Source of the DNA: Lachnospiraceae bacterium
GTDB lineage: Bacteria; Bacillota; Clostridia; Lachnospirales; Lachnospiraceae
Assembly (NCBI GenBank): GCA_014239155.1
Contig: JAAZZQ010000050.1
Span: forward strand, 22,284-86,283
DNA: 64,000 nt
Reading direction: 5' to 3'
Part shown: one piece after another, positions 12,627-63,240 of the stretch
How positions within the stretch are numbered: the stretch's first letter is position 1
How the letters are laid out: each line of letters opens with the position of its first letter
Made by a program: the position numbers and the translations under genes
Notes under the pieces: generated by a model
What the model was told of the DNA's origin: nothing
The model's input: the letters and a program-made list of their open reading frames with translations, nothing else
Databases searched by the model: none

Positions 12627-13931
12627 CTACAGTTTAGTCAAATTGAAAATCCATCTAAGCCAACCATATACAGAGCTTGCCCTGCGTACTATCTGTCCTT
12701 CATCACACACATGTAACGCACGCATTTTATTTTCAATGTCTTTTTTATTTGCCATAGTTCCTGTTTGAATCATATTATCAAAAAAATCGCCAAATATCTG
12801 ATGTTCTAAAATGAAAGCTACCAGTTTCAACTGTCTTTCCTTGTAGTTTAATTTAAAAACTTTATTTCCTAAAGCTGTCAATCGAATTACTCGTTGCTTG
12901 TCCTCACTTGTTTTCTCGAATAACCCCAAATATTTTCCTGCATTATAATAATAATCTGACTGGCGTAGTTCAAAATCCATCAATTCTGCAATCTGCTGGC
13001 TGGTCATTGGATTTTCGTACATGTTCTCTAATAAGGAAATAATTCTTTCCATTGAATTAGCCTGTATAAATGGCACATCTGAATTAGCCATATTGTCATC
13101 TGTCTTGACTGCTGTATTTTCTCTTACTTTCAGTAAGTCATCTAAAGTTATTGTTGTATCCTGCAAGGAATAATTTTTCATCCGAATTAATTCAATGGAG
13201 GAATAATCTTCTAACACATTAAAACGATATTCAAACAACCTGTAAATCATATTTGAATACACTGAAAAAACCAACCGAATTGGTTTTTTTACCTTATTTC
13301 TCCACAATCTATATGGATAGTATAGTTGACGGACATGAAAATCTTCATGAACCACATTCTTTGCTTCCATAATCACAACAGACTCAGCGTTCTCAAAACC
13401 ACCGTCTATTTCACACTGTGCATTATTAACATGAATCTTTTGTTTCACATTCCTTGTTGTATCAACTACAAAATCAAATTTCCCAGTTCCCATTCGCCCA
13501 TTAAATGTAGCAACATTCCCATTTGTATTTAAAAAATCATCTAATATACCTGTTAATATTAGCACATTGATTGCATTTGCTTCTGAGCTGATATTATTCA
13601 CATCTATTGATTCATAATCCGGCAGTTCTACGTGATCCATTTGTGTCACATGTTCCTCAAGTTCTGGAATCTTCTGGTACAATAAAAAATCACTTATAAC
13701 ATATGAGCTTCTACTATCTGATAAAATATTAATTTTATTGTCCCGCAATACCTTAGGTAAAGAATCGGTGCTATCCCACTTTGCCATTAATCTTGGCTCC
13801 TTATATGGTTTTATCTGACTTGCTTTCATATGATAGCATCCGTTTCTCTCAACTTCTTCTAAGATGTTATATTTATCTATCAACATCTTCCATGCGTCAT
13901 TAGCCGACATGTTATTTTTTTTCTGGGACAT
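12627..13931 (-). CDS. Putative type II restriction endonuclease (PD-(D/E)XK-like core, helical C-terminal region)
   Basis: 434 aa. Its start overlaps the stop of the upstream Dam-family MTase by 20 nt. Candidate nuclease motif EIDGGFENAESVVIMEAKNV (D...E-x-K). The region is AT-rich relative to its flanks. No family name could be assigned from memory. Confidence 0.55.
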   Translation of the reverse strand: MSQKKNNMSANDAWKMLIDKYNILEEVERNGCYHMKASQIKPYKEPRLMAKWDSTDSLPKVLRDNKINILSDSRSSYVISDFLLYQKIPELEEHVTQMDHVELPDYESIDVNNISSEANAINVLILTGILDDFLNTNGNVATFNGRMGTGKFDFVVDTTRNVKQKIHVNNAQCEIDGGFENAESVVIMEAKNVVHEDFHVRQLYYPYRLWRNKVKKPIRLVFSVYSNMIYRLFEYRFNVLEDYSSIELIRMKNYSLQDTTITLDDLLKVRENTAVKTDDNMANSDVPFIQANSMERIISLLENMYENPMTSQQIAELMDFELRQSDYYYNAGKYLGLFEKTSEDKQRVIRLTALGNKVFKLNYKERQLKLVAFILEHQIFGDFFDNMIQTGTMANKKDIENKMRALHVCDEGQIVRRASSVYGWLRWIFNLTKL

Positions 13932-14760
13932 AACAAATTAATACCTCACTAATTCCGCCACGCTTATTTGCATTGCTATTAATACTTCTTTTCGCTTGTA
14001 CTGTCCTAATATCATATTCTCTATACAATTCTCGTATCTCCGGGCAATCCGAATTGGATTGCAAAAAAGAGATTTCTTTTTCTTTTAACCTGTCACACTC
14101 ATTTTTTAATGCAACTTGCTGTTCGTATGAAAATCCATTTTCTGTATATCCCGTAAAAGACGAAGAAGATGATATTGGCATATAAGGAGGATCTAAATAT
14201 ACAAATGCTCCCCTTCGCAATCCTTTTAATGCCTCTCTGTAATCTCCCTGCTTAATCGTGATTTTTGAATTTTTAAGATAGCTCGACATTGCTCGTATCG
14301 TTGTCGCATTCACAATATTAGGATTTTTGTATTTTCCATATGGAGAATTAAATTGTCCTGCTGAATTTACTCTATATAAACCATTGTAGCACGTTTTATT
14401 AAGATAAATGATTCTTGCCGCTTTTTGAACACTACTCATCTTAGCATATTCTAAACTTCTGTCCAACGCTCTCAAATTATAAAAATACTCTCCTGTATTT
14501 TTTTCATTATGTTCTTCCAATAAGGCAATCAGTTCTTCCGGAAAATCTCTTACAACCTCATACACATTTATAAGTTCTGTATTATAATCGTTTATGATTG
14601 CCTTCTTAGGTTGCAATTCAAAAAAGACAGCTCCACCACCTACAAATGGTTCAACATACGTAGAACAATTTTTATTAATCAAGGGCATAATATCAGCCAA
14701 CAACTGCCTTTTGCCACCAACCCATTTTAAAATAGGACGAATTAAACTATTGTTAGCCAT
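13912..14760 (-). CDS. Dam-family site-specific DNA N6-adenine methyltransferase
   Basis: 282 aa. N-terminal KWVGGKRQL, SAM motif EPFVGGGAVFF, catalytic motif LDPPY. Confidence 0.9.
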   Translation of the reverse strand: MANNSLIRPILKWVGGKRQLLADIMPLINKNCSTYVEPFVGGGAVFFELQPKKAIINDYNTELINVYEVVRDFPEELIALLEEHNEKNTGEYFYNLRALDRSLEYAKMSSVQKAARIIYLNKTCYNGLYRVNSAGQFNSPYGKYKNPNIVNATTIRAMSSYLKNSKITIKQGDYREALKGLRRGAFVYLDPPYMPISSSSSFTGYTENGFSYEQQVALKNECDRLKEKEISFLQSNSDCPEIRELYREYDIRTVQAKRSINSNANKRGGISEVLICYVPEKK

Positions 14761-21194: not shown

Positions 21195-21230
21195 TGCCCT
21201 TACCTTTCCTGCAAATGTCTCTGTACAATT

Positions 21231-21303
21231 CAAGAATGCCATCGGCATTCTTGCTACAACATGCGGGTCAACTCTGCTAACAGATTACAGATTCGCGCGC
21301 CTG
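21231..21303 (-). repeat. Copy 4 of a conserved ~73-nt two-hairpin motif (family 1); intercistronic, 37 nt upstream of the P-loop gene start
   Basis: The reverse complement reads CAGGCGCGCGAATCTGTAATCTGTTAGCAGAGTTGACCCGCATGTTGTAGCAAGAATGCCGATGGCATTCTTG. It aligns with the copies at 27014, 28358 and 47958. Confidence 0.6.
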
Positions 21304-21318
21304 TAATAAAACTCTTTA

Positions 21319-25391: not shown

Positions 25392-25418
25392 TGCACTCCC
25401 TAGGCTGAACTGTTACCC
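25392..25418 (-). repeat. GTTACAGTTCAGCCTAGGG-type motif copy (family 3)
   Basis: The plus strand reads TGCACTCCCTAGGCTGAACTGTTACCC, the inverted orientation of the copy at 30195. Confidence 0.5.
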
Positions 25419-26744: not shown

Positions 26745-26945
26745 ATGAAAGAATCATTAAAAGAAATGGATTTCACAACTCTGAAAAACAATTTTGACGA
26801 AATATGCGACGAGATAAATAAAGGCAATGAGGCAGTCACACTCACATTAAAAAGTGGGCGTAAGGTTTTTATTATGCCTGAGGAAAATTTTGACAACATT
26901 TCCCGCTATGTAATAGACAATAATTCGGTAAATATCCTTCATTGA
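26745..26945 (+). CDS. Phd/YefM-family antitoxin-like protein (no adjacent toxin)
   Basis: 66 aa. FTTLKNNFDEICDEINKGNEAVTLTLKSGRKVFIMPEENFDNI fits the Phd/YefM N-terminal fold pattern. GGAGGA RBS. Followed directly by a strong terminator. Confidence 0.65.
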   Translation: MKESLKEMDFTTLKNNFDEICDEINKGNEAVTLTLKSGRKVFIMPEENFDNISRYVIDNNSVNILH

Positions 26946-26979
26946 AATATTGTTTCAGAATATGTCACTATTTAACCAG

Positions 26980-27012
26980 AAAATGCAGCTCCATTGGAGC
27001 TGCATTTTTATT
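26980..27012 (+). terminator. Rho-independent terminator
   Basis: AAAATGCAGCTCC-ATT-GGAGCTGCATTTT followed by a T-run. Confidence 0.8.
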
Positions 27013-27013
27013 G

Positions 27014-27087
27014 AGACGCGCAAATCCGTTACCTATCAGTAGATCTGACCTGCACACCGCAACAAGAATGCCGATAGCGTTCTTGAG
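27014..27087 (+). repeat. Copy 1 of the two-hairpin motif (family 1); most degenerate copy, no downstream same-strand gene
   Basis: GAGACGCGCAAATCCGTTACCTATCAGTAGATCTGACCTGCACACCGCAACAAGAATGCCGATAGCGTTCTTGAGTA. Both hairpins are retained, but I could not rebuild the outer P1 pairing. Confidence 0.5.
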
Positions 27088-27118
27088 TATACACAAACTT
27101 ATACAGAGAATTGTCAAA

Positions 27119-27829
27119 TTATTCCCCTACTCGATTTCTTGCCGCAGATATTCTTTTGTCTCGAACTGTAGTTTTCTTATAGCAGATGGAGTACATCACA
27201 GCTGACAGTAATAATGCAAGAAGTACATCAAGCATAGAATGCTGTTTAATAAGCACTGTTGAAAAAATAATACTTACACCAAGCGCAATCATTCCCGTCT
27301 TGATAATTCGATGGGTTGTAAAACATTTGCTTCGCCAAACGGCAATCATAACCGCAACAGAATTGTAAACATGAATGCTTGGAAGAATGTTTGTCGGGGT
27401 GTCTGTAGCATAAAGATTTTTAATTAAGTCAATAAAAATATTATCATGCGCAAATGTCTTTGGTCTTAAATTATGTCCATTTGGAAACACTGCTGAGACA
27501 ATAATAAATATAGTCATTCCTGCCATCAGAAATGCAACAAGTTTTTCACTCTCTTCCTTGTCTCGAATACACAATAATATTACTGTAAGCGCCACATAGG
27601 GAAACCACAATAAGTAAGGTACAATAAATATTTCGCAAAATGGAATATACGCGTCAATTCCTAAATTTATCTCATGTACTGCCACATTCCTTCTCTCCAA
27701 ATAGAAAAATGCTGTGAGATAAACCACTGCATACACAGTCATAACAGCCAATGACTTATATTGCAGAATTAGTCTAGTTCCCCATTTCCAGATGCTATTT
27801 TTCTCTATTTTCACAATATTTCCCTCCAC
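27119..27829 (-). CDS. PAP2-superfamily membrane phosphatase/transferase
   Basis: 236 aa, polytopic. PAP2-like block LPSIHVYNSVAV... Confidence 0.7.
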   Translation of the reverse strand: MEGNIVKIEKNSIWKWGTRLILQYKSLAVMTVYAVVYLTAFFYLERRNVAVHEINLGIDAYIPFCEIFIVPYLLWFPYVALTVILLCIRDKEESEKLVAFLMAGMTIFIIVSAVFPNGHNLRPKTFAHDNIFIDLIKNLYATDTPTNILPSIHVYNSVAVMIAVWRSKCFTTHRIIKTGMIALGVSIIFSTVLIKQHSMLDVLLALLLSAVMYSICYKKTTVRDKRISAARNRVGE

Positions 27830-28357
27830 AATGCCAAAATGCTAAGATACATTAAAAGCATTTCCAAAAACAATTCTTTTTATAAAGCTGTTCCTCATTA
27901 TAGAGTATGCATTGTGTAAAGTCAACTTCCAATTGCAATCTTTTGCATTCTTCATAAAATCTTAAGGAAAAATAAAATAAATAAACTCCTATTTTTATTT
28001 TTTATGCAAAAAAGGCGTTATCTGTGCATTTTTTTTAAAGTGTTTTTATAGAATTTAAACAGATATGGTTATAGAATTGTTTATTATATATACATTATGA
28101 TGTTTCTTTCCTTTTTGCAGAAAATTAGCTAAAATAAATAAACAATTCTTTTCTAAAATTTTTGTAAATTTTTTTATGTGTTTTCCATAAATTGATGTTT
28201 GATTATTTCTTTTATTTCGAGTACACTAAATAAGTGAGAACTGTTGTTGTTCACGCCTATTCGTTTTTAATAGACTTTTAAATGTAGACAGCAACACTTT
28301 TGCACATGATTTCCACTACTTTTTTAAACCCATGAGAGGAAACTGAAAACTTTTATT

Positions 28358-28433
28358 GCAGGCGTGCCAATCCGTTATCTGTCAGCCAAGCTGACCCGCA
28401 TGCTGCAGCAAGAATGCCGATGGCATTCTTGAA
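28358..28433 (+). repeat. Copy 2 of the two-hairpin motif (family 1); ends 29 nt before the PHP gene start
   Basis: P1 is GGCGTGC (28361-67) with GCATGCT (28398-404). P2 is GTCAGC-CAA-GCTGAC (28381-95). P3 is AAGAATGCC-GAT-GGCATTCTT (28410-30). Confidence 0.6.
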
Positions 28434-29250: not shown

Positions 29251-29284
29251 AAAAATGCGTTTTTAGTAGAAAACGCATTTTTTA
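29251..29284. terminator. Bidirectional rho-independent terminator
   Basis: AAAAATGCGTTTTT-AGTAG-AAAACGCATTTTTT. It has A/T runs on both sides and sits between convergent PHP and cheD-operon genes. Confidence 0.8.
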
Positions 29285-29340
29285 TGCGCTGACTCATGCA
29301 GATGAAATCAGCCGTTGCGACGGCGCATGGGTCGCGCGGA
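29285..29340 (-). repeat. Nested-hairpin unit (family 2), single copy
   Basis: The reverse complement CCGCGCGACCCATGCGCCGTCGCAACGGCTGATTTCATCTGCATGAGTCAGCGCAT aligns with the units at 63080-63240. Confidence 0.5.
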
Positions 29341-30194: not shown

Positions 30195-30225
30195 CCGTTA
30201 CAGTTCAGCCTAGGGCTTTGCATTT
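30195..30225 (+). repeat. GTTACAGTTCAGCCTAGGG-type motif copy (family 3)
   Basis: CCGTTACAGTTCAGCCTAGGGCTTTGCATTT, about 20 nt upstream of the cheD -35. Confidence 0.5.
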
Positions 30226-31745: not shown

Positions 31746-31789
31746 GTTACAGTTCAGCCTTGCCTATTCATATAGCTGAACTGTTACCC
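31746..31789. repeat. Inverted pair of family-3 half motifs forming a hairpin
   Basis: GTTACAGTTCAGC (31746-58) and GCTGAACTGTTAC (31775-87). There are 13 positions with one mismatch and a 16-nt loop. Confidence 0.5.
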
Positions 31790-31808: not shown

Positions 31809-34800
31809 TCAATTATTATACAACACAAATCCGTTTAAATATGGTTTTTTCGATGTCTTTTTCCATTCTCGAGCCAAGCTTACCTGACCACTGCGCGGCG
31901 GTGCCACAACCTCGCAATTTGGTGAAAAAGATGCAACAGTCACATAACTGCATTCTCCAGTAATTGTTTCCATCACTTGAAGTTCTACATTGGTTACAAA
32001 ACAGCGTTCGCCAAAAGACAAATCTTCCAGATACAAAATACCGCTGTAATCCTTTACACGCGGCAATAGAAGCTCTTCTGGCGCTCTGTTGTCAAATGAC
32101 AATACTGCCTTGAGACTCTTCTCCTGCGCAGTTGTATCTACCTTAACTCTCAAACCTGCACCATGCTGTATACTCCACGGTTGGCTCGTAACATCCAAAG
32201 AAAATTCTTGCGCTTGTGTCATAATGGTTCCAGCTACCTGCCTGTCCTCCTCTATATCAGATAACATAACATCATAACTGCTATCGCTCACAGCCACCCT
32301 GTATTCATACTCTGTACCCGGTTTAAGTCCATTAATAAAGGTCAGCATTCCACCTGTTGTCTTGCTGATAATATAACTCTTTTTATTCTTAATCCAATCA
32401 TCTGCCCCCTTTTCTCTATAAAATACATAGAGATACGAGTTCGTATTTATTGGATTGTTTGTAATCATCGCCTTAATTGAAATATAAGAATATCCGCTTG
32501 CCGCAATGACATTGGTAAGGCTTCTACCATCTGTCTGCGTCAGGATTTCGCCAGAGCAAGTTCCATTGAGAGTCGCTGTAATCGGTGGATATTGCACACT
32601 GCTAATACCAGTCACAAATTCATAAACTGTGTCTGCATTTACATCATCACCTAAATAGCTTGTAAGTTCAAAATTACACTCTGCCTGGTTCTCAGCCAGC
32701 AATGTCGTCCGAATATCCCAGTCCTCTTCATCTTTCTCCTTGAAAAACAACACAAGATATGAGTCCGGCGCTGGATCCCCCTCAATCTGTGCCTGCAATG
32801 TAATATTGTGTGCCCCTGCAATCTGATTGCCGACACTCACCCGCACACCATCAATTTTTGCATCAAAAGTAAACGTATAACTTCCATACTCTTTCCCTTT
32901 AATATCGCGGAAAGAAACATTATAGCTTCGCTCATCCACAAGACCAGAAATCGTATACCCTGTTGTCTGATACCCCTTTGCGGCGTAGAGATTAAAGCTA
33001 GAACCATTTTTATAATACGCTCCATCTTCCTCCTGAACATAGGCAAACAAAGTGATATCCTTTGTAATATTTTCTGTTCTGCCTTTCAGCGCAATTGTAC
33101 AGGTTATTGATTCTGATAAATTCGCTGTGATTGAAACCGCTACCTCTGATTTTTCTGTATGAATGCGTTGATATTGTGTATTTATCAACGTACTGCCTTC
33201 AAAAAGCTCCCATTTAAAACCATACTCTGTATCTGGAGAAAGTGCAAAATAATCTGCTGCCTGAACAAATATTGTATAATCCTCCACTGCTGTAAGTGCT
33301 GTTTTTGTCCGCAACTCTGCATAGAGTTTTGTCTCATCATTATAATAATACAATTTATAGCTGTACGCAAAACTCCTTGTCAGTTCCATTTCATCTAATC
33401 CATAAGAAAGCACAGAATCATATGCTCCTGTATCTGCTGTCAAGCGAGGATTAATGCGCGCTTTTCCCATCTGAAAAGTACCGCGCTTCACTACACCGGC
33501 AATCCAAACTTCATATTCATATCCTGCACCTTCCTGCAAACCAATCAGCACACCTTTTGCCGTACCGTCTTTCACCTGAATTACCTTTGTCTCATACTCA
33601 CCAAGGGAATTTTTCATTCGATACTTTAATTTTCCTGTCCAATAAATTGTATCGTCTGTTATATGAACCGTATACTCTGCTTTGGTACTTTTTTCCTTAC
33701 TCTGCTTAATCGAAACAGACAATGCGCTCTCTGAAAATGGTGCCAAATCTGTCTTAACCTCCAAAGTCTTTTCCTTAAAATGTGCAGAATACCCTGATTC
33801 ATTAATCCACATTGTAACAAGATACGACGTATTGTGTTGCAAATCAGGCACTGATTTCTCAATCGTCCATCGCTCGCGGCCTTTTGTAGCAAGTTTTTCT
33901 ATATCTGAAACGATCGTTTTGCCATTTTGATCTGCAATCTCGTAACATAAATTAAAATATTCTGGAACTTTTCCTGAAAATGCAGTAATATCTGCTCTAA
34001 GCACAATATTGTCTGGTCCAGATGATCTAACATTATAATTTACCACCGCTGGATATTCTTTTGTATCAACTGTTGTATATGCAAAAGTAACACCACTTCG
34101 ATTATAAAATTCAAAGTAATAGGTCTGCGCTGGTTCAAGCCCTGTTACCGTAATGCTCGAAGTTCCATTAATATATCGTTGTACTGTCACTTCCTTATCG
34201 TACTCTGCAAGTGGACCATAACTGTATTTTGCCACTGGTTCCACAGCCTCTACTTCCAGTGTGATGCTGTCATATCCAGCACGCTTACTCCGAAAAATCA
34301 AGTTTTCGCGCGAGCTTCCTGTCTGCATTTTAATCGGATTGCTCTCTGGTATCAATACTGCCTCAAGTTCTAGTGTACTTGCATTGACCAAATACATTGT
34401 AAAGTTGTACTCTACTCCTGCCTCAAGTGCATTGATCATTCTTTCTTTTTTTACTTCCGGTGAAATCTGCTCCTCAATTAATTGATAGCCAATATCACTG
34501 TTTCCATATCGAATTTGCCAGTAGTAATTTCCGCCAAGCGCTGCACCATTTTTAGAAGAAAGTTTTATGTCCGCTGAAATAGTCCTGCTGGCTGCTCTCC
34601 AACCAATCTGCGCTGTAAAGACTCCTGTACTTGCTGTATAACCATTGCCTGTTCTTCCTACAGATGCCATTTTCACCCCAGTTACACCAAACTGAACACT
34701 TTTCCCAATCGCAGGTCCACTTTCCGCACAGGAAAGCTGCGGATATACTGTCTGTCCTTTTTCCAGATACATCAAAGCATATCGTATTGTATTCTGATAT

Positions 34801-35651
34801 AACTGGTTTCTTAACTTAACTCCATCTGCATACCGGTCATATATGCTCAATGATACACCACCTACACTGCTTCCCTGTATATAAAAATTATAATATCCTG
34901 ATTCTGATGCAGTAAATTGAAACCACTGTGCCCCATTATGTTTTAAGAGCACAGACTTAGCAAAGCCACTTTTTATCACTATTGTGTTATTCAACACAGA
35001 CTCCTCAACCACAGTCTGTTCCTCTGTTGATTCCTCCTCCGTGGTAGTTGTCTCCTCTGTCTCTTCCTCCGTCGTTTCTTCTTCTGTCTCCTCGTCTGTG
35101 GTCTCTTCTTCCTCTGTCTCTGTATCCTTTTCCTTGGAGTACTCCTCCGATGTCTCCTCCGTACTTTGTTGCGTATCCGAAGTTTCAGACGAGGAAGACT
35201 CTTCCGTGTTTGTCTCTGTTGTGGAAGAGTCCTCGCTGCTTGTTGTCTCTGTACTAGAAGACTCCTCGGCGCTTGTCGTCTCTGTACTAGAACTTTCCTC
35301 ACTGCTTGCAGTTTCAGTGCGGGAAGGTTCTTCATTGGAAGTTTCTGTACTAAAATTTTCCTCACTGGAAGACTCCTCACTTGTACAAACTTCCTCTGAA
35401 GAATCTTCCTCTGAAAGCTCTTCAGAGGAAAACTCTTCTGAAGATTCTTCTTCACTGGAAGATTCTTCCTCAAGAGTTTCTTCCTCCGAAGGCTTTTCTG
35501 GCTCTGAAGGTGCTTCCTCCTCCGATTCTTCTGAATCTTGTGATACGCTGCTCTCTGTCAAAGTCTCCTCTTCCGCCCCATAACTGATCTGTGGTATGCT
35601 TACCGCTAAAAGGCAGCTGCACAACAACACTGATATCATTCTGAAAAACAT
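31809..35651 (-). CDS. Large secreted protein: signal peptide, ~190-aa acidic S/E/T-rich region, then multiple FN3/Ig-like beta-sandwich repeats; no recognisable anchor
   Basis: 1280 aa. Signal peptide MFFRMISVLLCSCLLAVSIPQISYG-AEEE. The low-complexity region reads SSEESSSTETTSAEESSSTETT.... FN3-like strand motifs recur (GLEPAQTYYFEFYN, GLKPGTEYEYRVAV, GLQEGAGYEYEVWI). The C-terminus has no LPXTG or TM. Confidence 0.8.
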   Translation of the reverse strand: MFFRMISVLLCSCLLAVSIPQISYGAEEETLTESSVSQDSEESEEEAPSEPEKPSEEETLEEESSSEEESSEEFSSEELSEEDSSEEVCTSEESSSEENFSTETSNEEPSRTETASSEESSSTETTSAEESSSTETTSSEDSSTTETNTEESSSSETSDTQQSTEETSEEYSKEKDTETEEEETTDEETEEETTEEETEETTTTEEESTEEQTVVEESVLNNTIVIKSGFAKSVLLKHNGAQWFQFTASESGYYNFYIQGSSVGGVSLSIYDRYADGVKLRNQLYQNTIRYALMYLEKGQTVYPQLSCAESGPAIGKSVQFGVTGVKMASVGRTGNGYTASTGVFTAQIGWRAASRTISADIKLSSKNGAALGGNYYWQIRYGNSDIGYQLIEEQISPEVKKERMINALEAGVEYNFTMYLVNASTLELEAVLIPESNPIKMQTGSSRENLIFRSKRAGYDSITLEVEAVEPVAKYSYGPLAEYDKEVTVQRYINGTSSITVTGLEPAQTYYFEFYNRSGVTFAYTTVDTKEYPAVVNYNVRSSGPDNIVLRADITAFSGKVPEYFNLCYEIADQNGKTIVSDIEKLATKGRERWTIEKSVPDLQHNTSYLVTMWINESGYSAHFKEKTLEVKTDLAPFSESALSVSIKQSKEKSTKAEYTVHITDDTIYWTGKLKYRMKNSLGEYETKVIQVKDGTAKGVLIGLQEGAGYEYEVWIAGVVKRGTFQMGKARINPRLTADTGAYDSVLSYGLDEMELTRSFAYSYKLYYYNDETKLYAELRTKTALTAVEDYTIFVQAADYFALSPDTEYGFKWELFEGSTLINTQYQRIHTEKSEVAVSITANLSESITCTIALKGRTENITKDITLFAYVQEEDGAYYKNGSSFNLYAAKGYQTTGYTISGLVDERSYNVSFRDIKGKEYGSYTFTFDAKIDGVRVSVGNQIAGAHNITLQAQIEGDPAPDSYLVLFFKEKDEEDWDIRTTLLAENQAECNFELTSYLGDDVNADTVYEFVTGISSVQYPPITATLNGTCSGEILTQTDGRSLTNVIAASGYSYISIKAMITNNPINTNSYLYVFYREKGADDWIKNKKSYIISKTTGGMLTFINGLKPGTEYEYRVAVSDSSYDVMLSDIEEDRQVAGTIMTQAQEFSLDVTSQPWSIQHGAGLRVKVDTTAQEKSLKAVLSFDNRAPEELLLPRVKDYSGILYLEDLSFGERCFVTNVELQVMETITGECSYVTVASFSPNCEVVAPPRSGQVSLAREWKKTSKKPYLNGFVLYNN

Positions 35652-37270: not shown

Positions 37271-38962
37271 TTATTCTGTGGTGTATTGAAAACGAAACCC
37301 CTTTTCTTTGCAATAGTCTTCTGCCTTACTTCCTTTGGGACAGGATATAATCAGGTTTGGACAACCACTAAATATCTCATCTCCCTCATTAAACTTATTA
37401 AAAACAGATGTTAACCTTTGAACAGAGCTTGGCAGTATAACCTCTTTCAAATCACTACAACCCAAAAATGCATTTCCACCGATTTCAAGAACACCTTCAC
37501 AAATATGTACACGCTCTAATTTCTTACAATAGAAAAATGCACACGCCCCTATCCTCTTTACTGTTCCTGGAATGGTAAGACTTTTCAAAGATTCACATGC
37601 CCAAAACGCACCTATGCCAAGTTCTTCTAAACCATCAGCAATCATTATCTCTTGCAGGGAAGACATATTGCGAAACGCATACTTTTCAACCTTTCGCAGT
37701 GTCTTTGGCAGTATAATCTTTGTTATCTTACCATGTTGTTCAATCTGCTCTTGTCTTGTATATACAGAAGTAAAACCAGTATTTCCAGTAAATGCACCAT
37801 ATCCTATCACTGTGACAATACCCTTGCCAATCTTTTCTGGAACAGTAACTTCAATTTCCTTGCCTTTGTAGTTTGTAATGGCTAGTGTTCCATCCTCTTT
37901 TTTCTCATAACGCCACAGTTTTCTTAATGCTGTGACAGAATCTGACGCCATATTTAACTCCCGCATTAACTTTTTTTCTGCTTTCCTTTGTTCAGCCGTC
38001 AAGTCAACAGTACGATTTTTGAAATCCAAAAGCCATGCTGCCGATTCTATTTTGTGATTTTCTGAAGCATATGCAATTAATTCATCACGCCGGCGTATAT
38101 CCTTAAGCCAGCCGTAATCCTCTACAATTTTTAGACAGGAAACACGCTCATTATCAATGATTTCTCCTAGAATCCTTTTCTTGTTCATCTCAGATTGATT
38201 AAAATGTTGTAGAAAAACCATAAAAAACTCGGGAATCAAAAACCGCTGACTGTTTATTCGCCAAAGTTTTTCCGTGAAATGCAACTTTTTTTCTTCGCCG
38301 ATTTCTGTGTGTAATGCAGAGAGAACATGTGCCAATGTATCATCACTAAGTGTCCCTAGAAAATACCAGTACATCGTCCACCTGTCATTTTCATTTCCAC
38401 CTCCCTCTGTCAACATTTCTTTTATCTCATTGGAAAAGCAAATTCCTTTTTCCTTTAATGCATTGGCAATATTTCTCTCATCTGTAAGGATTGCATAGTA
38501 AAGATAGTCTCCAGAGAAAAGACAAAGCTTCCCCTCCTGTTCGCACAAATATTCTATAACCTGAATACGTTCTTCCTCACAGAGTGGCATAAGCGGTTTG
38601 CCCTCACTGTCAACAAGCTCATTCATCTTTCTATTTGGCGCAAAATAACCCTTGATTCGATCCACACCTTTTAATAAAAACAAAATAAAAAAATCCGGAA
38701 GAAGCATTAAATAGTGCGTGCCAAAATCATAATACAAATCGTAATCTATCCTTGTCTCATATCCGAATGATACGCCGCTTTCGACAAGAGCTTTCACCAT
38801 ATCCACCCCGGCAAAACGACCAGCAATTCCCAAAATACGAGCCGTGAGAAAAGGATTATGAAGCTCCTGATAAAGTCTCACCGCCTCGTCAGGTACACCG
38901 CTAAGCACTGCCTTCTCAATTGCTTTTAGCTTTGCCTTTTCCTCTCTATATTGTGTATTCAT
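37271..38962 (-). CDS. Cytoplasmic ankyrin-like + leucine-rich-repeat (LRR_5/BspA-type) protein, paralog 4 (most divergent N-terminus)
   Basis: 563 aa, no signal peptide or TM. Four xxAFxxCxxL LRR units by hand count. Conserved linker AAWLLDFKNRTVDLTAEQRKAEKKLMRELN. ATGA start/stop overlap with the upstream paralog. Confidence 0.8.
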   Translation of the reverse strand: MNTQYREEKAKLKAIEKAVLSGVPDEAVRLYQELHNPFLTARILGIAGRFAGVDMVKALVESGVSFGYETRIDYDLYYDFGTHYLMLLPDFFILFLLKGVDRIKGYFAPNRKMNELVDSEGKPLMPLCEEERIQVIEYLCEQEGKLCLFSGDYLYYAILTDERNIANALKEKGICFSNEIKEMLTEGGGNENDRWTMYWYFLGTLSDDTLAHVLSALHTEIGEEKKLHFTEKLWRINSQRFLIPEFFMVFLQHFNQSEMNKKRILGEIIDNERVSCLKIVEDYGWLKDIRRRDELIAYASENHKIESAAWLLDFKNRTVDLTAEQRKAEKKLMRELNMASDSVTALRKLWRYEKKEDGTLAITNYKGKEIEVTVPEKIGKGIVTVIGYGAFTGNTGFTSVYTRQEQIEQHGKITKIILPKTLRKVEKYAFRNMSSLQEIMIADGLEELGIGAFWACESLKSLTIPGTVKRIGACAFFYCKKLERVHICEGVLEIGGNAFLGCSDLKEVILPSSVQRLTSVFNKFNEGDEIFSGCPNLIISCPKGSKAEDYCKEKGFRFQYTTE

Positions 38963-40605
38963 TTATATATTGACTCCTCCATTGTATCTGCTTTTTCTTT
39001 ATCACAGTTTTGAAATGAAAGGTTATTTTTCTTACAGTAAGACTCTATTTCGCTTCCCTCTGGACAATATATAACAAGCTTGGGACAATCCGAAAATGCC
39101 CGCTGGCCAATTTTTAAGACCCCCTCGCTGATATACACCTCCTCAAGATTTCTGCAATCCGTAAAGGCATATTCCCCAATTTCTTTTACAGATTCAGGAA
39201 TTGTGAGTCTTTTGAGAGAACCACATTCATAAAAAATAAACGCGGCAATTTCCTCAACACCTTGAGGAATGTTAATTTCCCTGAGCGCCTTCATACTCAT
39301 AAATGCACCCGCACCAATAGATTGAACTGTTTCTGGCAGTGTAATTTTCTTAATAGTGCGATGCTGTTGTTCCTGTTCCCATGAGGTGTATGTAATGATG
39401 CCCGCTTTCCCTGATGAGCCCGCAAGTGCACCATCTTTGATCGCTGTGACAGTGCTTCTTCCTATTTTTTCTGGGACAGTCACCTCCGTATGTGTACCTT
39501 TATAGTTGGTAATCACAAGAGTACCATCTTCTCTTTTCTTATAGCTCCAAATCTTTTTCAGTGCTTCAACGGAATTCGGTGATATATTTTTGTTGAGTTC
39601 ACGCATCATCTTTTTGTCGGCTTTTTCCCGCTCTGCGGCAAAATCAGCAGTGCGGTTCTTGTAGTCTAAAAGCCATGCAAGCGCCTCTGTCTTCTTATTT
39701 TCAGAGGCGTACTCTATTATCTCATCGCGCTTTTTGGGCACAGAAAACCAACCTACTCGCTCAATTATTGGCAGTGCCTCTAAGATGTCATCATCAATTA
39801 GATCACGAATTATTTGATATTTCTTCATCTTATCCTGTCTAAAGTGCACAAGGAAATACTCAAACACTTCTAAATCCTGAAAACGCTTCTTGGTAACATC
39901 AAACATTTTTTCTGTATAATAAAATGGTTTTTCATCAATCTCCAAGGCAAGCTGTTGCATAACATCAAGATAATTCTTATCCGCAAGTTTTCCTGTCAGG
40001 GCACAAAATTCATACCAGTATCCATCTGAAATCGTAACACTCCCCTCTGTCATTGTATGAACACGTCTGTCAGAAAGTGTGACACCATGTCTTCTCAACT
40101 CTTCAAAAATAACAGCATCTTTGGCACAAATCGCATAAAACAGCATTTCTTCTGGCTGAAATGAAAGTTTTTCCTTCTGTGCAATAAGGTATTCCAACAC
40201 GGTCACTCGCTCCTTATCTGCAAGAAACGACAAGGGTTTTCCCGCTTCTCGTTTCCTATTTTTTGTGAACTTCATACCTGTGAGGCAGCAGGCGCCCTTT
40301 AGTTCACCGCGAAACACTTTCAACAAATACAACGCATAGTTTGTGCGATAATTCGCATACTTCTGCCCAATATAGCAGCCATATAATATCTCACTTTCTT
40401 GCGTTGATGGAAAGTCAAAGGTTGCACCTTTTTTTACTAAAATCTTTACCATATCAAGTCCACGAAAACGACAGGCAAGCCCAAGTGCTGGCGCGGACAT
40501 TTCCACATAGCCAAGCTTGTCATAGAGTTTAGAAAGCTCCTCAACAGAGCAGTTGATTACTGCATGTTCTAAGGCTTCTGCTTTTTCTTTCTGTGTAAGC
40601 TCCAT
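38959..40605 (-). CDS. Cytoplasmic ankyrin-like + LRR (LRR_5/BspA-type) protein, paralog 3
   Basis: 548 aa. ANK-like segment APALGLACRFRGLDMVKILVKKGATF. Four LRR units. GGAGGAA RBS lies inside the upstream gene's end. Confidence 0.8.
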   Translation of the reverse strand: MELTQKEKAEALEHAVINCSVEELSKLYDKLGYVEMSAPALGLACRFRGLDMVKILVKKGATFDFPSTQESEILYGCYIGQKYANYRTNYALYLLKVFRGELKGACCLTGMKFTKNRKREAGKPLSFLADKERVTVLEYLIAQKEKLSFQPEEMLFYAICAKDAVIFEELRRHGVTLSDRRVHTMTEGSVTISDGYWYEFCALTGKLADKNYLDVMQQLALEIDEKPFYYTEKMFDVTKKRFQDLEVFEYFLVHFRQDKMKKYQIIRDLIDDDILEALPIIERVGWFSVPKKRDEIIEYASENKKTEALAWLLDYKNRTADFAAEREKADKKMMRELNKNISPNSVEALKKIWSYKKREDGTLVITNYKGTHTEVTVPEKIGRSTVTAIKDGALAGSSGKAGIITYTSWEQEQQHRTIKKITLPETVQSIGAGAFMSMKALREINIPQGVEEIAAFIFYECGSLKRLTIPESVKEIGEYAFTDCRNLEEVYISEGVLKIGQRAFSDCPKLVIYCPEGSEIESYCKKNNLSFQNCDKEKADTMEESIYK

Positions 40606-40607
40606 CT

Positions 40608-42590
40608 TTATTCCTCCATAAAATAATTGATTTCCAAATCTTCATTATTCCGAAACCGAAGGCCTTTTTTAATGCAATATTCCTCCATTTTACTTTTTTT
40701 CGGGCATACTACAGTTAAATTGGGGCACTCTTCAAACACACCACACTTGCGCGCTCCATACTTTTTTGTTATCAGATGCTGGACGGATTTTGGGACAAAA
40801 ACCACCTTTAAATTCGGGCATTTAAAAAATACACCATCGTCCATTTCCTGAACCCCCTCACGGATCTGTACACTCTCAAGAACACTACATTCATAAAACA
40901 TGTATTTTTTCATATTAGTCACAGTTCCGGGAATCATTATATTTTTTAGACAAACACAACCATAAAATGCAGATGCACCGATTTCTTCAACGCTCTCCCC
41001 AATATGGATTTCCTCCAATTTTTGACAGTGCGCAAATGCAAGTTTCCCAATTTTCTTTAAAGAATTGGAAAAAATAAGCTTTCTTAGGGCGTTACAATTT
41101 GCAAATACTTCTTCACCAATTTCACAAACACCATCAGGAATGGTTATCTGTTTTAATGCTTCCATTACATAAAATGCTCTTGCACCAATTTTTTCTAAAC
41201 TCTTTGGAAGTGTAAGATGTTTTAGTGAGCGACAACACCCAAATGCCTCTTCCTCAATTACACTTACACCTTCAGGAATGTTAATCTCCACAAGTGACTT
41301 CATATTAAAAAAAGCACCCGCTCTAATTTCATGAACTGTTTCTGGAAGGATTATTTTTGTAATTTTACAGCGGTGTTCTATCTGCTCTGCGGTCACTTTT
41401 CCATTATAATAACTGCCCGAAAAAGCACCCTTTCCAATTGCTGCGACAACGCCTTTTCCTATCTTCTCTGGAACAGTCACCTCAAACTCTGTCCCTTTAT
41501 AATTAGTAATAGTAAGGGTGCCATTCTCCTCTTTTTTATAATTCCAAATCTTCTTTAACGCAGTAACAGAATTTGGTGCAGCATTCAGTTCACGCATCAG
41601 TTTCTTATCCGCTCTCTCCTGTTCTGCAGCAAAATCAGCCGTGCGGTTTTTAAAATCCAGAATCCATGACAACATCTCTGTCTTGTTGTTCTCCGATGCA
41701 TACGCTATAATTTCATCGCGCCTTTTGGTGACATTGAGCCACCCCTCACGCTCAATAATAGGAAGCACATCTATCTGATCTTGTTCTATAAAATCACGTA
41801 TCATCTCAATTTTATTCATTTTCTCCTGTTTGAATTGCGCTAGAAAAAATTCAAATATTTTGAGATCACAAAACCGTTTTTTAGTAATTTGGTATATATT
41901 CCATGTAAAATAAAATTGCTTTCCATCAAGTTCAGCAGCAATCTGCTGCATGATTTCCAGATAATCGCTGTCGGCTAACTGTTCTGTAAGAAGAACATAC
42001 TCAAACCAGTACCCATCCATAGCGATAGCACCTTCTGTTAGCTTTTGCACACGGATTTTAGAAAGTTTAATATTATACGTTTTCAATTCCTTTACAATGG
42101 CAGTATCTTTGAAGTATATCGCATAAAATAATAATTCTTCTGGCTGAAAAGCTATCTTTTCTCTGTTCTCTAAAAGATATTTTAACACATCCACACGTTT
42201 CTCATCCGAAAGAAATGGTAGTTGGCGTCCCTCTTTTGTATTTGCACTCCTTTCCATTGTCATACCGTTTATGCAAAAAATTCTTGAATTTTCTCCAAAA
42301 ATTTTTAATAAATACATTGCATAATTTGTTCGGTAATTCCCATATTTCTTCCCGATATAACAATGATATCTCTCCTCAATTTTCTTAGTGGATGGAAAGT
42401 CAAAGGTTGCTCCTTTTTCCACCAGCACCTTCACGATATCAAGTCCTCGGAAGCGGCAGGCAAGACCAAGTGCAGGTGCAGACATCTCTATTTCTCCAAG
42501 CGCGTCACAGATTTTTCTTAGGTCCTCAACAGAGTTATTAAGAACTGCCTGCTGCAACTGCATGGCTTTTTCTTCCTGTGTAAATTCCAT
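40608..42590 (-). CDS. Cytoplasmic ankyrin-like + LRR (LRR_5/BspA-type) protein, paralog 2
   Basis: The start is set at MEFTQEEKA (42590), because the track's MKGGMK extension is the RBS AAGGGGGG. Eight LRR units by hand count. Confidence 0.8.
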   Translation of the reverse strand: MEFTQEEKAMQLQQAVLNNSVEDLRKICDALGEIEMSAPALGLACRFRGLDIVKVLVEKGATFDFPSTKKIEERYHCYIGKKYGNYRTNYAMYLLKIFGENSRIFCINGMTMERSANTKEGRQLPFLSDEKRVDVLKYLLENREKIAFQPEELLFYAIYFKDTAIVKELKTYNIKLSKIRVQKLTEGAIAMDGYWFEYVLLTEQLADSDYLEIMQQIAAELDGKQFYFTWNIYQITKKRFCDLKIFEFFLAQFKQEKMNKIEMIRDFIEQDQIDVLPIIEREGWLNVTKRRDEIIAYASENNKTEMLSWILDFKNRTADFAAEQERADKKLMRELNAAPNSVTALKKIWNYKKEENGTLTITNYKGTEFEVTVPEKIGKGVVAAIGKGAFSGSYYNGKVTAEQIEHRCKITKIILPETVHEIRAGAFFNMKSLVEINIPEGVSVIEEEAFGCCRSLKHLTLPKSLEKIGARAFYVMEALKQITIPDGVCEIGEEVFANCNALRKLIFSNSLKKIGKLAFAHCQKLEEIHIGESVEEIGASAFYGCVCLKNIMIPGTVTNMKKYMFYECSVLESVQIREGVQEMDDGVFFKCPNLKVVFVPKSVQHLITKKYGARKCGVFEECPNLTVVCPKKSKMEEYCIKKGLRFRNNEDLEINYFMEE

Positions 42591-42604
42591 TTTCATTCCC
42601 CCCT

Positions 42605-44800
42605 TCAAACGCCGCTTTTTTCAAATACATTGTCTTTAAATCGAAACCCTTTTTCTCTACAATATGCTTCCGTATCACTTCCCTTAGGACAGATTACTGT
42701 CAGATTTGGACAAGCCCCAAACACCTCATAGACAATATTTCTATATTCCATAGATTTTAAGCGCTGAACAGACTGTGGCACACAGACTTCCTTTAGCGAA
42801 TCACAGCACCAAAATAAACCTGCATTTAGTTCTTGAACCCCCTCACAAATAAAAACTCTTTCCAAATTTTTACAGCCTGAAAATGCATGTAATCCAACAC
42901 GCACTACTGTACCGGGAATTGTGACATTTCTCAGAGCATTGCACCCATAAAAAGCCTCATCACCAATCTCTTGAATCCCTTCATTCATATAGATTGTTTC
43001 TATACTTCTACAGTCTGCAAATGCCTCTTTTCCAACGCGTTGTACTGTTTTAGGAATTATAATATTTTTTAAATTCTGACAGGCATAAAATGCACATTTG
43101 CCAATTTCCTCGACACCTTCACAGAGACCTACTTCTCTTAGTTTTCTACAGTTTGCAAATGCTTCCTCTCCAATTATTTTTACACTTGCAGGAATTGTAA
43201 GTTTCCTTAAAGAACTGCATCCAGAAAATGCATCTTTACTAATTTTCTCTACGTTTGGGGGAATTACAAGTTCTTTTAAAGAAGCGCATCCATGAAATGC
43301 CCCCTCACAAACCTCTCGCATATCTTTATGAATAGATACTGCTTCCAACTTTCGACAATTATAAAATGCTTTGTTGCCAATTTTTTCTATATTTTCGGAT
43401 ACAATAAGTTCTCTTAGATGACAACATCCGCTAAATGCCTCCACATCAATCTCTTTTACTCCTTCCGGAATATTGATTTGTTCCAAGTTGGCCAGCTCAT
43501 GGAAAGCACCTTTTCCAATGTATGTGATTGTCTGTGGCAGCACAATTTTTGTAATTTTTTTATTCCGATCTATCTGTTGTTGTGTCGCACATGGTTTGTA
43601 GGTATTATCCCCTGCAAATATACCTTTTCCAATCGCTGTGACAACGTTTTTCCCAATTTTTTCTGGAACAATAACCTCGATATGTATACCTTTGTAACCT
43701 GTAATAATAAGAGTATTATCTTTTTGTTTTCTATAATTCCATATCTGTCGAAGTGCAGTCACAGAACCCGGTGCTGCGCCGAGTTCTCGCATCAGTTTTC
43801 TATCAGCCTTTTCCTGCTCTGCAGCGATATTGGCAGTACGATTTTTAAAGTCAAGCAGCCACGCAAGTGCTTCTGTCTTTTTATTTTGTGATGCATATAA
43901 AATCATTTCATCACGTTTTTTTGGCGTAGCAAGCCAGCCTTGTCTCTCAATAACAGCCAACGCATCAATGGCATTCTCGTCAATTAGATAACGTATTATA
44001 GAAAATTTTTTCATTTTTTCTTGTCTAAAATTAGCAAGGAAAAATGAAAAAATATCAATATTATAGAAACGTTTTTGTGTACTATACAATATTTTTTCCG
44101 TAAAACGATATGGCTTTCCATGAAGCTCAGTAGAGAGTTGACGCATCACTTGAATATAATCTTTGTCGGCAAGCTTTGCGGTTAAAGAACTAAACTCAAA
44201 CCAATATCCATCCGCTATGGTACCCTCTGTTATTGCATAACTACGTTTTTCTGAAAGCACAATATTATGCTCTTTTAGGGTATCATAAATAACAAAATCC
44301 TTTGCAAATATTGCATAAAAAAGCATTTCCTCTGGCTGAAAAGATAATTCTTGTTTGTTTTCCAACAAAAAATAAAGCACCGCAATTCGCTCCTCATCCG
44401 CAAGAAGTGACAATTGCTCTCCATCTTCCCTCATTATCTTTTGAGTCAGCTTCATGCCCTGTAAGCAGCGAGCGCCCTTCAATCCACCACGATAACTTTT
44501 CAGCAAGTACAGCGAATAGTTTGTGCGATAATTTTCACGATAGTTTGCATGGTTTTTACCAATATGGCAATGATATGTCATTTCAATTTCCTCAGTTGAA
44601 GGAAAATCAAACGTTGCTCCTTTTTCCACCAGCGCCTTCACAATATCAAGCCCTCGAAAGCGGCAGGCAAGTCCCAACGCAGGCGCAGACATTTCCACAT
44701 ACCCTAACTTGTCATATATCTTACAAAGCTCCCCGACAGAATTATTGAGAACTGCATGCTGCAGCCGCGCAGCTTTTTCTTCCTGCGTAAGAAGTTCCAT
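42605..44800 (-). CDS. Cytoplasmic ankyrin-like + LRR (LRR_5/BspA-type) protein, paralog 1
   Basis: The start is set at MELLTQEEKA (44800), after an AAAGGTGGA RBS. Eleven LRR units by hand count. Confidence 0.8.
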   Translation of the reverse strand: MELLTQEEKAARLQHAVLNNSVGELCKIYDKLGYVEMSAPALGLACRFRGLDIVKALVEKGATFDFPSTEEIEMTYHCHIGKNHANYRENYRTNYSLYLLKSYRGGLKGARCLQGMKLTQKIMREDGEQLSLLADEERIAVLYFLLENKQELSFQPEEMLFYAIFAKDFVIYDTLKEHNIVLSEKRSYAITEGTIADGYWFEFSSLTAKLADKDYIQVMRQLSTELHGKPYRFTEKILYSTQKRFYNIDIFSFFLANFRQEKMKKFSIIRYLIDENAIDALAVIERQGWLATPKKRDEMILYASQNKKTEALAWLLDFKNRTANIAAEQEKADRKLMRELGAAPGSVTALRQIWNYRKQKDNTLIITGYKGIHIEVIVPEKIGKNVVTAIGKGIFAGDNTYKPCATQQQIDRNKKITKIVLPQTITYIGKGAFHELANLEQINIPEGVKEIDVEAFSGCCHLRELIVSENIEKIGNKAFYNCRKLEAVSIHKDMREVCEGAFHGCASLKELVIPPNVEKISKDAFSGCSSLRKLTIPASVKIIGEEAFANCRKLREVGLCEGVEEIGKCAFYACQNLKNIIIPKTVQRVGKEAFADCRSIETIYMNEGIQEIGDEAFYGCNALRNVTIPGTVVRVGLHAFSGCKNLERVFICEGVQELNAGLFWCCDSLKEVCVPQSVQRLKSMEYRNIVYEVFGACPNLTVICPKGSDTEAYCREKGFRFKDNVFEKSGV

Positions 44801-44817
44801 AGATATTCCACCTTTCA

Positions 44818-47760: not shown

Positions 47761-47957
47761 ATTTTCTTTGACTCCTCAAGTGTCCGAACTTAGATTTATA
47801 TCTATCATAGTCCGAACTCGGATGCTTGTCAAATGCACTTTCTCACAATTTTATCTCTGCCGGAGAAGACTCCCACTTCTATAAGTGACAAGTAAAATAC
47901 AATTTTGTCTCAGTGGGAGTACAATCTTGGACTAAAATAAGCCTCCAGCATGATTAT

Positions 47958-48030
47958 AGGTGTGCAAATCTGTAATCTGTCAGCAAAGCTGATCCGCATG
48001 CCGTAACAAGAATACCGATGGCATTCTTGA
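47958..48030 (+). repeat. Copy 3 of the two-hairpin motif (family 1); lies upstream of, not inside, the DUF2975 operon promoter
   Basis: P1 is GGTGTGC (47959-65) with GCATGCC (47996-48002). P2 is TCAGC-AAA-GCTGA. P3 is AAGAATACC-GAT-GGCATTCTT, with one A-C mismatch. Confidence 0.6.
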
Positions 48031-48122
48031 ATCACCTGCACTGCATTCGCTAATACATCTATAAATATTTTTCTTTATTAATATTTATCATATAAAAATT
48101 AATGACAATCATATATAAATCA

Positions 48123-63079: not shown

Positions 63080-63240
63080 GAAAGTCTTTCCCTACTCGCG
63101 CGCTGGGTGCCCGTCAGCTTGCTGACATACTTCATTTGGGCACTCGTGTGCAATCGAGTAGGGAAAGACTTCTCCCCTACTTTCTGCGCGACCCGTGCGC
63201 CACATTAGTGGCATATTTCCTTTGCACGGGTCTGTGCATA
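63080..63240 (+). repeat. Two tandem nested-hairpin units (family 2); unit 1 is enclosed by a 17-bp perfect stem
   Basis: Unit 1: TGGGTGCCC / GGGCACTCG around GTCAGC-TT-GCTGAC. Unit 2: GACCCGTGC / GCACGGGTC around GCCAC-ATTA-GTGGC. The outer stem pairs 63082-63098 with 63155-63171. Confidence 0.55.

Follow-up and report, generated by a model that had tools for sequence, protein, structure and literature searches.

A gene-less hairpin repeat family of Lachnospiraceae inserted downstream of TTTAT, possibly a non-autonomous transposon of IS200/IS605 kind

The question raised by the locus

A stretch of 64,000 nt from a Lachnospiraceae bacterium (assembly GCA_014239155.1, contig JAAZZQ010000050.1, positions 22,284 to 86,283 of the forward strand), called the window below, carries four intergenic copies of one hairpin-forming motif. 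Are these copies regulatory leaders of the genes beside them, or are they members of a mobile repeat? The copies were found to belong to a gene-less, multi-copy and modular family whose presence is patchy between species. Its units were inserted 3' of a pre-existing TTTAT, without duplication and without inverted ends, and their presence, type and orientation vary between related species. They may be non-autonomous hairpin transposons of the IS200/IS605 kind, like palindrome-associated transposable elements (PATEs) or repetitive extragenic palindromes (REPs), mobilised in trans by a putative HUH transposase, and a probability of about 0.5 is given to this reading.

Copies in the window

The four copies sit where a preliminary description had placed them (21303-21231 on the minus strand; 27014-27087, 28358-28433 and 47958-48030 on the plus strand). 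They align over about 80 nt with an identity of 72-85%. A 24-nt probe of the 3' hairpin, with up to two mismatches allowed, matched exactly these four in the window, where shuffles expect 0, and a covariance model of the short form scored them at 62-90 bits (E 1e-15 to 1e-22). The four look-alike copies are real, and chance cannot explain them. Their extents, together with the motif directly 5' of the copy from which the analysis started, are:

28357..28433, plus strand: copy C, the starting finding, a 77-nt short element (covariance model, 90 bits)
28352..28356, plus strand: TTTAT directly 5' of copy C, a target-type motif resembling a transposon-adjacent motif (TAM), also present at the empty site of a relative
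21229..21305, minus strand: copy A, a 77-nt short element (covariance model)
27012..27087, plus strand: copy B, a decayed short element (covariance model, 62 bits)
47855..48031, plus strand: copy D, a full-length 177-nt element

Copy C consists of an interrupted hairpin of about 55 nt, called the Y-module, and the P3 hairpin CAAGAATGCC-GAT-GGCATTCTTG, and its 3' end is TTGAA. The Y-module of copy C contains a P1 of 12 bp with an A bulge, a 5' bulge of 11-13 nt and P2 (GTCAGC/GCTGAC). This copy lies in the 5' untranslated region (UTR) of a PHP phosphoesterase gene, 27 nt upstream of the ATG. Copy A is located in the 124-nt spacer from an alpha/beta-hydrolase gene to a dNK-type kinase gene, in sense orientation and 37 nt before the start codon, and is directly preceded by TTTTAT (21311-21306). 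Copy B, whose P1 has three A-C mismatches and whose P3 has two changes, begins just after the T-tract...AT of a Phd-antitoxin terminator and faces a PAP2 gene.

Copy D lies upstream of the promoter of a DUF2975 gene and is preceded by TTTTAT (47849-47854). Its 5' domain (47855-47952) has a long stem CTCTGCCGGAG.../...CTTGGACTAAAAT, an inner hairpin CCCACTT-CTAT-AAGTG and a linker AAGCCTCCAGCATGA, followed by the Y-module (47953-48007) and P3 (48007-48029). The stretch 47958-48030 was rightly recognised as a copy, while its extent was not, being only the 3' part of the 177-nt element. The preliminary description, in its own numbering, was correct on the contexts (the PHP gene 29 nt downstream and the dNK-type kinase gene 37 nt downstream, and for the other two a position after a terminator and one upstream of a promoter).

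The inventory of four copies was true as far as it went, and incomplete, since the short-form model also hit three further P1/P2 units without P3 in the window. A model of the Y-module alone found seven units in the window and none further at E < 0.1, which corresponds to about 1 unit per 9 kb. The three additional units are:

29286..29339, plus strand: Y-module without P3 (ACTCATGC/GCATGGGT, P2 GCCGT/ACGGC; model, 48.6 bits)
63153..63237, minus strand: Y-module (ACCCGTGC/GCACGGGT, P2 GCCAC/GTGGC; model, 58 bits)
63081..63152, minus strand: second, tandem Y-module (GAGTGCCC/GGGCAC.C, P2 GTCAGC/GCTGAC; model, 62 bits)

In the unit at 63153..63237 the Y-module is followed by a 3' hairpin AGTAGGG-N11-CCCTACT and the end CGAT. 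The unit at 63081..63152, whose other P1 strand is GGGCACCC, starts right after this CGAT end and has half of the AGTAGGG hairpin.

Insertion sites

Of about 20 stand-alone units, 14 have TTTAT in front of them, and in 9 of these 14 the unit abuts a terminator hairpin, with TTTAT being the end of the T-tract. Three such cases occur in the window, namely copy B and the units at 29286 and 63237. The unit at 29286 begins directly after the TTTTTTAT of the PHP gene terminator, and the one at 63153..63237 sits directly after the TTTTTTTAT of a terminator. Two of these terminators are:

26985..27011, plus strand: intrinsic terminator GCAGCTCC-ATT-GGAGCTGC with ATTTTTAT, its TTTAT abutting copy B
29254..29285, plus strand: terminator of the PHP gene (AATGCGTTTT...AAAACGCATT with TTTTAT), the source of the TTTAT before the unit at 29286

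At the other end, units with P3 finish in TTGAA, of which TTGA was part of the search pattern and only the final A was free; units without P3, which were found independently, finish in TCGAT, TTGAT or CAAT.

Orthologous loci, cited here by L numbers, were obtained through the PHP protein. In L098, a 91%-identical relative, the PHP 5' UTR holds an empty site, TTTTTTAT^TATATATTTTTGGAGG or in a longer reading TTTTTTAT^TATATATTTTTGGAGGG (^ marks the junction), and the filled site of the window reads CTTTTAT^77-nt element^TATATATTTTGGAGG. From this pair it follows that TTTAT belongs to the target, that nothing was duplicated, and that the element is exactly TGCAGG...TTGAA. The PHP 5' UTR lacks the element in the 91%, 86% and 84% relatives alike.

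The neighbouring sites were also variable. In L103 and L105 the Phd terminators are empty but have the TTTAT, with GGAGCTGTTTTTTAT^TTGA (TTTTTTAT^TTGA...), and copy B occupies the counterpart in the window. At the PHP terminator, TTTTTTAT is followed by a different unit (other stems, AGTAGGG hairpin) in L098 and by none in L099, L101 and L103. The Phd-PAP2 spacer of L099 has a unit of opposite orientation, again just after a T-tract. In the hydrolase-kinase spacer, a 79% relative carries a unit without P3 where the window has copy A, and a 71% relative carries none.

Terminal inverted repeats were not found: one end reads TGCAGG... or CTCAGCC..., the opposite end ...GGCATTCTTGAA, and the two are not complementary. 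No target-site duplication was seen in the empty/filled comparison, and the flanks of about 40 copies share no repeat. TTTAT was seen on the 5' side only, never on both sides. No inverted pairs of units were found, the single array in the window being a direct tandem, and no empty site within a species was detected among three near-identical strains.

A separate observation concerns the hydrolase-kinase spacer of L070. Its unit without P3 (L070:2977-3030) and the P3-type unit of the window (21229-21305) lie in the same spacer at different distances from the stop codon, and the remnant after the L070 unit (AGCAGGGAAGGAG) doubles as the ribosome-binding site of the kinase gene.

Fold and covariation

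The P1/P2/P3 structure that had been built by hand was borne out, and P1 gained four further pairs (TTGC.../...GCAG). For 13 full-length copies, RNAalifold gave an inner hairpin enclosed by a long outer stem, a linker, a 12-bp P1 around the bulge and P2, and P3 abutting it; the consensus P1 was TTGC-A-GGCGTGCG / CGCACGCC-GCAG, and the multi-domain fold of the full-length element had z = -3.2. The P1/P2 fold is shared by the three window units without P3, whose stem sequences are entirely different and whose purine-rich bulges are alike (...GAAATAT). Bulge sequences are conserved (...GAAATAT / GAATAT) and in many units end ...AAATAT beside P2. Looked at as a possible internal DNA guide that would covary with the TAM and the transposon-end motif, the bulge varies while the TAM stays TTTAT.

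With more copies, as the preliminary description had proposed, covariation proved strong. Among 19 diverse units, changes on both sides were seen in 15 of the 18 pairs of P1 and P2, and 91.7% of the cells were paired. The covariation score was 0.577, compared with 0.213 in shuffles, none of 500 of which reached it; slid partners gave no more than 0.113. The fold of the Y-module is real, but covariation identifies neither the strand nor the molecule.

It had been argued that the substitutions favoured G-U pairs in one strand and hence RNA rather than DNA. A hand count over the aligned window copies gave about 11 G-U against 8 A-C, and the mismatches of the whole family were 33 G-U against 26 A-C, or 26 against 31 in a wider set with one terminal pair excluded. 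Since G-U is not in excess over A-C, the wobble argument for RNA fails; equal numbers are what neutral decay of DNA copies predicts.

Family spread and element forms

An exact-pattern scan for the P3 hairpin was made over bacterial genomes (one per species) and metagenome contigs, and yielded 29 genome loci and 40 metagenome loci. Nearly all genome matches belong to Lachnospiraceae or 'Eubacterium' metagenome-assembled genomes (MAGs), which are multi-copy (10 in one MAG, 7 in another). About 45 distinct loci of other Lachnospiraceae have related units.

Alignment of the flanks revealed the 177-nt full-length form, as at 47855-48031, at many loci. Copies A, B and C represent a short form of about 77 nt, in which TGCAGG follows TTTTAT without a gap. 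Other loci showed internal deletions, 5'-truncated copies and one 3'-truncated copy (L096), and L032 and L040 are two versions of one locus differing by an internal deletion. The Y-module occurs alone, with an alternative 3' hairpin, or with an extra 5' domain of about 100 nt. There are at least two alternative 3' hairpins, P3 (end TTGAA) and AGTAGGG...CCCTACT (end CGAT, TGAT or CAAT). The Y-module model found extra P3-less units in loci outside its training set (L070, L016, L012, L099 and L098), and some additional units were in unrelated parts of the retrieved loci.

In the window, Rfam 15 gave no match at gathering score, so no known family was hit; around copies C, D and the units at 63 kb, nothing meaningful appeared at E <= 10, the HEARO and IS605-orfB families included. 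The full-length element had no BLAST match in phage and plasmid collections, and in a full-text literature search no paper contained the P3 sequence in either DNA or RNA letters. The family has no name as far as found in Rfam and the literature.

Two observations touch on relatives of these units. In a Peptostreptococcaceae MAG (L004:40-190, L025:4286-4700) the exact P3 hairpin (AAGAATGCCGATGGCATTCTTGAT) stands amid an unrelated repeat of about 230 nt, two copies of which are arranged in tandem upstream of a queA-like gene in L025. P3 therefore looks like a portable module common to different repeat families. Another, very hairpin-rich sequence (L035:212-1, minus strand) shares its first 30 nt or so (TTATCTCAGTCGAGAAGACTCCCACTTCT) with the 5' end of the full-length element and then diverges. 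It runs off the contig end and has no Rfam match, and loci reached via the adjacent Rrf2 gene do not have it. A relative with a different body is conceivable, as is an autonomous parent.

Genomic context

The genes beside the units are unrelated and include those for dNK kinase, PHP phosphoesterase, PAP2, DUF2975, an ABC exporter, M29 peptidase, SelB, TetR, a helicase and QueA, among others. At non-redundant loci, 14 units were in tandem with their neighbours in sense and 5 in antisense (5 of 19 informative tandem cases), 8 were in convergent and 8 in divergent spacers. This mixed orientation speaks in part against the RNA reading of the preliminary description. By strand, the window units divide 4 to 3, and the GC skew of the window has one sign throughout. 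Gene orientation and GC skew were tried as diagnostic signals and dropped, both biases being weak.

Proposed mechanism and rival explanations

The insertion signature, with a fixed 5' motif, no duplication and no inverted ends, leads to the proposal of single-strand hairpin transposition by an HUH enzyme, above all of the IS200/IS605/PATE type. The units would move as single-stranded DNA hairpins by 'peel-and-paste', with TTTAT in the role of the TAM; the transposon-end motif (TEM) would be TTGAA or T[CT][GA]AT. TTTAT and TTGAA differ at positions 3 and 5, as the TAM (TTTAT) and TEM (TTCAC) of ISGst2 from Geobacillus do, where gene-less PATEs are mobilised in trans (PMC10055086). For the present units, an HUH (Y1) transposase encoded elsewhere in the genome would likewise act in trans. 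Stem covariation would arise from selection for hairpin formation in active master copies, and inserted copies would then decay neutrally. The short form may have used the internal ...GGAT^TGCAG as an alternative left boundary, and the tandem array at 63 kb may result from a second insertion after the ...CGAT end of the first unit. The copies in the window would be old, fixed passengers, whose influence on the PHP and kinase mRNAs would be incidental.

Several points weigh against this proposal. No transposase, integrase or reverse transcriptase was found in the window (Pfam on non-nested open reading frames (ORFs) of 100 aa or more) or beside any of the units examined, the ORFs flanking atypical copies matched only housekeeping genes in Pfam, and tblastn with IS200 and IS608 TnpA queries found nothing in the 810 kb of locus DNA retrieved. 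The left and right hairpins of IS200/IS605 elements normally resemble each other, and here P2 (GTCAGC-AGA-GCTGAC) has no sequence in common with P3 (AAGAATGCC-GAT-GGCATTCTT) or with the AGTAGGG hairpin. Identity between copies of one genome is only 72-90%, every copy is fixed in the three near-identical strains compared, and no recent movement was seen. Only the empty site of L098 is clean on both flanks, the others resting on diverged spacers. The strand of the units relative to replication, taken from local GC skew, is weakly biased (26 to 13); this bias and the weak sense bias can be explained by a T-tract target on the coding strand of the upstream gene. Finally, a covarying P1 of 12-13 bp and a purine bulge conserved in sequence exceed what Y1 TnpA is known to need, which leaves room for an RNA role.

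The dissimilar hairpins would be less surprising if the units were mobile and non-autonomous by some other mechanism, driven by a Y2 rolling-circle enzyme of the IS91 type, by a recombinase of the IS110 type, or by a site-specific recombinase with the perfect 10-3-10 palindrome of P3 as its substrate. The insertion signature would be the same, as an IS91-type Y2 enzyme also inserts beside a fixed tetranucleotide without duplication, and the presence of P3 inside the unrelated Peptostreptococcaceae repeat suggests a portable module for protein recognition. This explanation is rather unlikely: no gene for such an enzyme was observed in the neighbourhood of the units, at 3 bp the spacer of P3 is shorter than the core sites of tyrosine recombinases require, as judged from XerCD/dif and integrase core sites, and the TAM/TEM resemblance fits IS200/IS605 elements specifically. 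It is unlikely, too, that the Y-module is a functional RNA scaffold, that is, a remnant or working form of an omega-RNA or guide RNA used in trans by a TnpB- or IscB-like protein in a manner reported for certain PATEs, or some other protein-binding RNA; the covariation would then stem from selection on the RNA. The very strong covariation, the conserved 5' bulge, the full-length multi-domain fold and the modest sense bias would all suit such a role, PATEs often encode omega-RNAs (PMC10055086), and the terminal hairpin's 5' strand is partly repeated in the bulge, so that an alternative pairing or pseudoknot is conceivable. But no tnpB or iscB gene flanks any of the approximately 45 loci or lies in the window, the Rfam search matched neither HEARO nor IS605-orfB, and G-U pairs are not in excess. 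Many units are just downstream of terminators, where low transcription is expected, and antisense units and truncated copies exist. A more specific version, in which the Y-module and the terminal hairpin form a compact omega-RNA-like scaffold on gene-less elements, read by a TnpB-, IscB- or TldR-type protein from elsewhere with the sequence 3' of TTGAA as guide, is somewhat more doubtful still; if it were true, the host would have hundreds of 'orphan guides' beside terminators and 5' UTRs.

The units might instead be extragenic palindromes kept by the host for a job, such as protection of mRNA 3' ends or protein binding, as proposed for REPs or bacterial interspersed mosaic elements (BIMEs), and no longer mobile. 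Their fixation in all three strains, the placement of many after terminators, and the conservation of the P3 stem across genera, even in copies found without the P3 probe, would agree with this; patchy presence, differing unit types at orthologous sites, the decay of copy B, internal deletions in situ, and a post-terminator position that lies outside the mRNA make it quite improbable. Least tenable is the cis-regulatory leader or riboswitch with decayed copies, one of the two options of the preliminary description. Copies A and C do stand in sense shortly before start codons, and the fold is well supported. However, the downstream genes share no function and no expression platform is conserved. 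The PHP 5' UTRs of the relatives are without the element, and the kinase orthologues have either no unit (71%) or one of a different type (79%). Units also lie after terminators, in convergent spacers and antisense to genes, and truncated copies are common. The riboswitch reading is refuted. [quoted passage not shown]

Some further ideas were set aside. A retro-element with target-primed reverse transcription had been prompted by the 5'-truncated copies; this pattern arose from the search with the 3' hairpin, and the 3'-truncated L096 exists. Readings as attC, dif or an operator were weighed from the sequence and dropped.

Other features of the window

At 26745-27205, the Phd/YefM-type antitoxin gene (66 aa) is followed by no recognisable toxin gene, and an overlapping 87-aa ORF without Pfam match spans the terminator and copy B. 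Another intergenic repeat, GGTAACAGTTCAGCCTAGGG, which is unrelated to the family, occurs at 25398-25416 (minus), 30197-30215 (plus) and 31746-31764 (plus). Its first two copies are inverted and bracket a 4.8-kb block with copies B and C and the unit at 29286; the one at 31746 pairs with GCTGAACTGTTAC as a 13-bp inverted repeat, and a similar string flanks the element in L013.

Four tandem paralogous genes for BspA-type leucine-rich-repeat proteins (548-737 aa) lie at 37271-44818 on the minus strand. They share DNA blocks of 70-77% identity, and MoxR-type AAA and VWA-like genes come next. The ORF at 31809-35651 (minus, 1280 aa) contains 33-nt tandem repeats at 35031-35370 and has a weak fibronectin-III match only; it probably encodes a repetitive surface protein. 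At 12627-14760 (minus), in a dip of GC content (0.36), a gene for a Dam-type (D12) adenine methyltransferase overlaps a DUF6996/DUF6997/DUF7226 gene, and the two are probably a restriction-modification pair.

Significance

A false riboswitch candidate was removed by this analysis. Strong covariation can make a mobile repeat look like a structured regulatory RNA, which is relevant to motif-discovery pipelines run on gut metagenomes. The family is an abundant repeat in a major group of gut bacteria with a clear insertion signature, 3' of TTTAT and commonly at the T-tract of a terminator. If the transposase were found, hairpin-guided single-strand transposition of the PATE/REP type would extend to Lachnospiraceae, with very short mobilised units of 55-80 nt. 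Units inside 5' UTRs or operon spacers, as at the PHP and kinase genes, may alter the folding or stability of the mRNA, and the units are likely break points in metagenome assemblies.

Comparison with known systems

PATEs of IS200/IS605, such as those related to ISGst2 in Geobacillus stearothermophilus, are like the present family small, gene-less and multi-copy, without terminal inverted repeats or duplication; they are inserted 3' of a 5-nt motif, TTTAT in both, have hairpins near their ends and are presumed to be mobilised in trans, and their end motif departs from the TAM at the same two positions (TTCAC in PATEs, TTGAA here) (PMC10055086). Unlike PATEs, the present family has two dissimilar hairpins, a core of one long stem with an 11-nt bulge, and units down to about 55 nt, and in the DNA examined no cognate TnpA or TnpB was found.

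REPs and REPINs with their REP-associated tyrosine transposases (RAYTs) are GTAG-tagged palindromes, and resemble the present units in being extragenic hairpins mostly downstream of genes, with mosaic or tandem arrangements (PMC3733652). A 3-nt tail after the palindrome and subfamilies that differ by complementary stem changes are further likenesses, and a G[C/T]AG directly 5' of the palindrome (of P3 in the present units) may be another (PMC3733652). In the present units GCAG, GTAG or GCAA stands directly 5' of P3, and the same bases also form the P1 extension pairs. GTAG REPs were not reported from Firmicutes in the survey (PMC3733652). In contrast to the present units, which are direct or single and more complex, REPs are 20-40 nt long, typically form inverted dimers and have no TTTAT target.

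The bcr1 or group A repeats of the Bacillus cereus group share a Firmicute host, a gene-less length of about 155 nt, a link to TTTAT, compensatory changes that keep a two-stem fold, a distribution not conserved between close strains, and an unknown transposase (PMC3184786, PMC6542083). Compared by description, 5-bp direct repeats (TTTAT) flank bcr1, whereas the empty site of the present family has no duplication. Classical MITEs have both terminal inverted repeats and target-site duplication, and the present units have neither. BOX elements of Streptococcus pneumoniae and BIMEs of E. coli are likewise modular, with parts that can be exchanged, ends that are conserved and middles that vary; they are intergenic and form stable folds (PMC3184786). 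Their modules and sequences are different from those of the present family. No targeting of TTTAT or terminators is known for BOX elements. The family fits none of PATE, REP, bcr1 and BOX/BIME fully, and PATEs, REPs and bcr1 are the closest to it.

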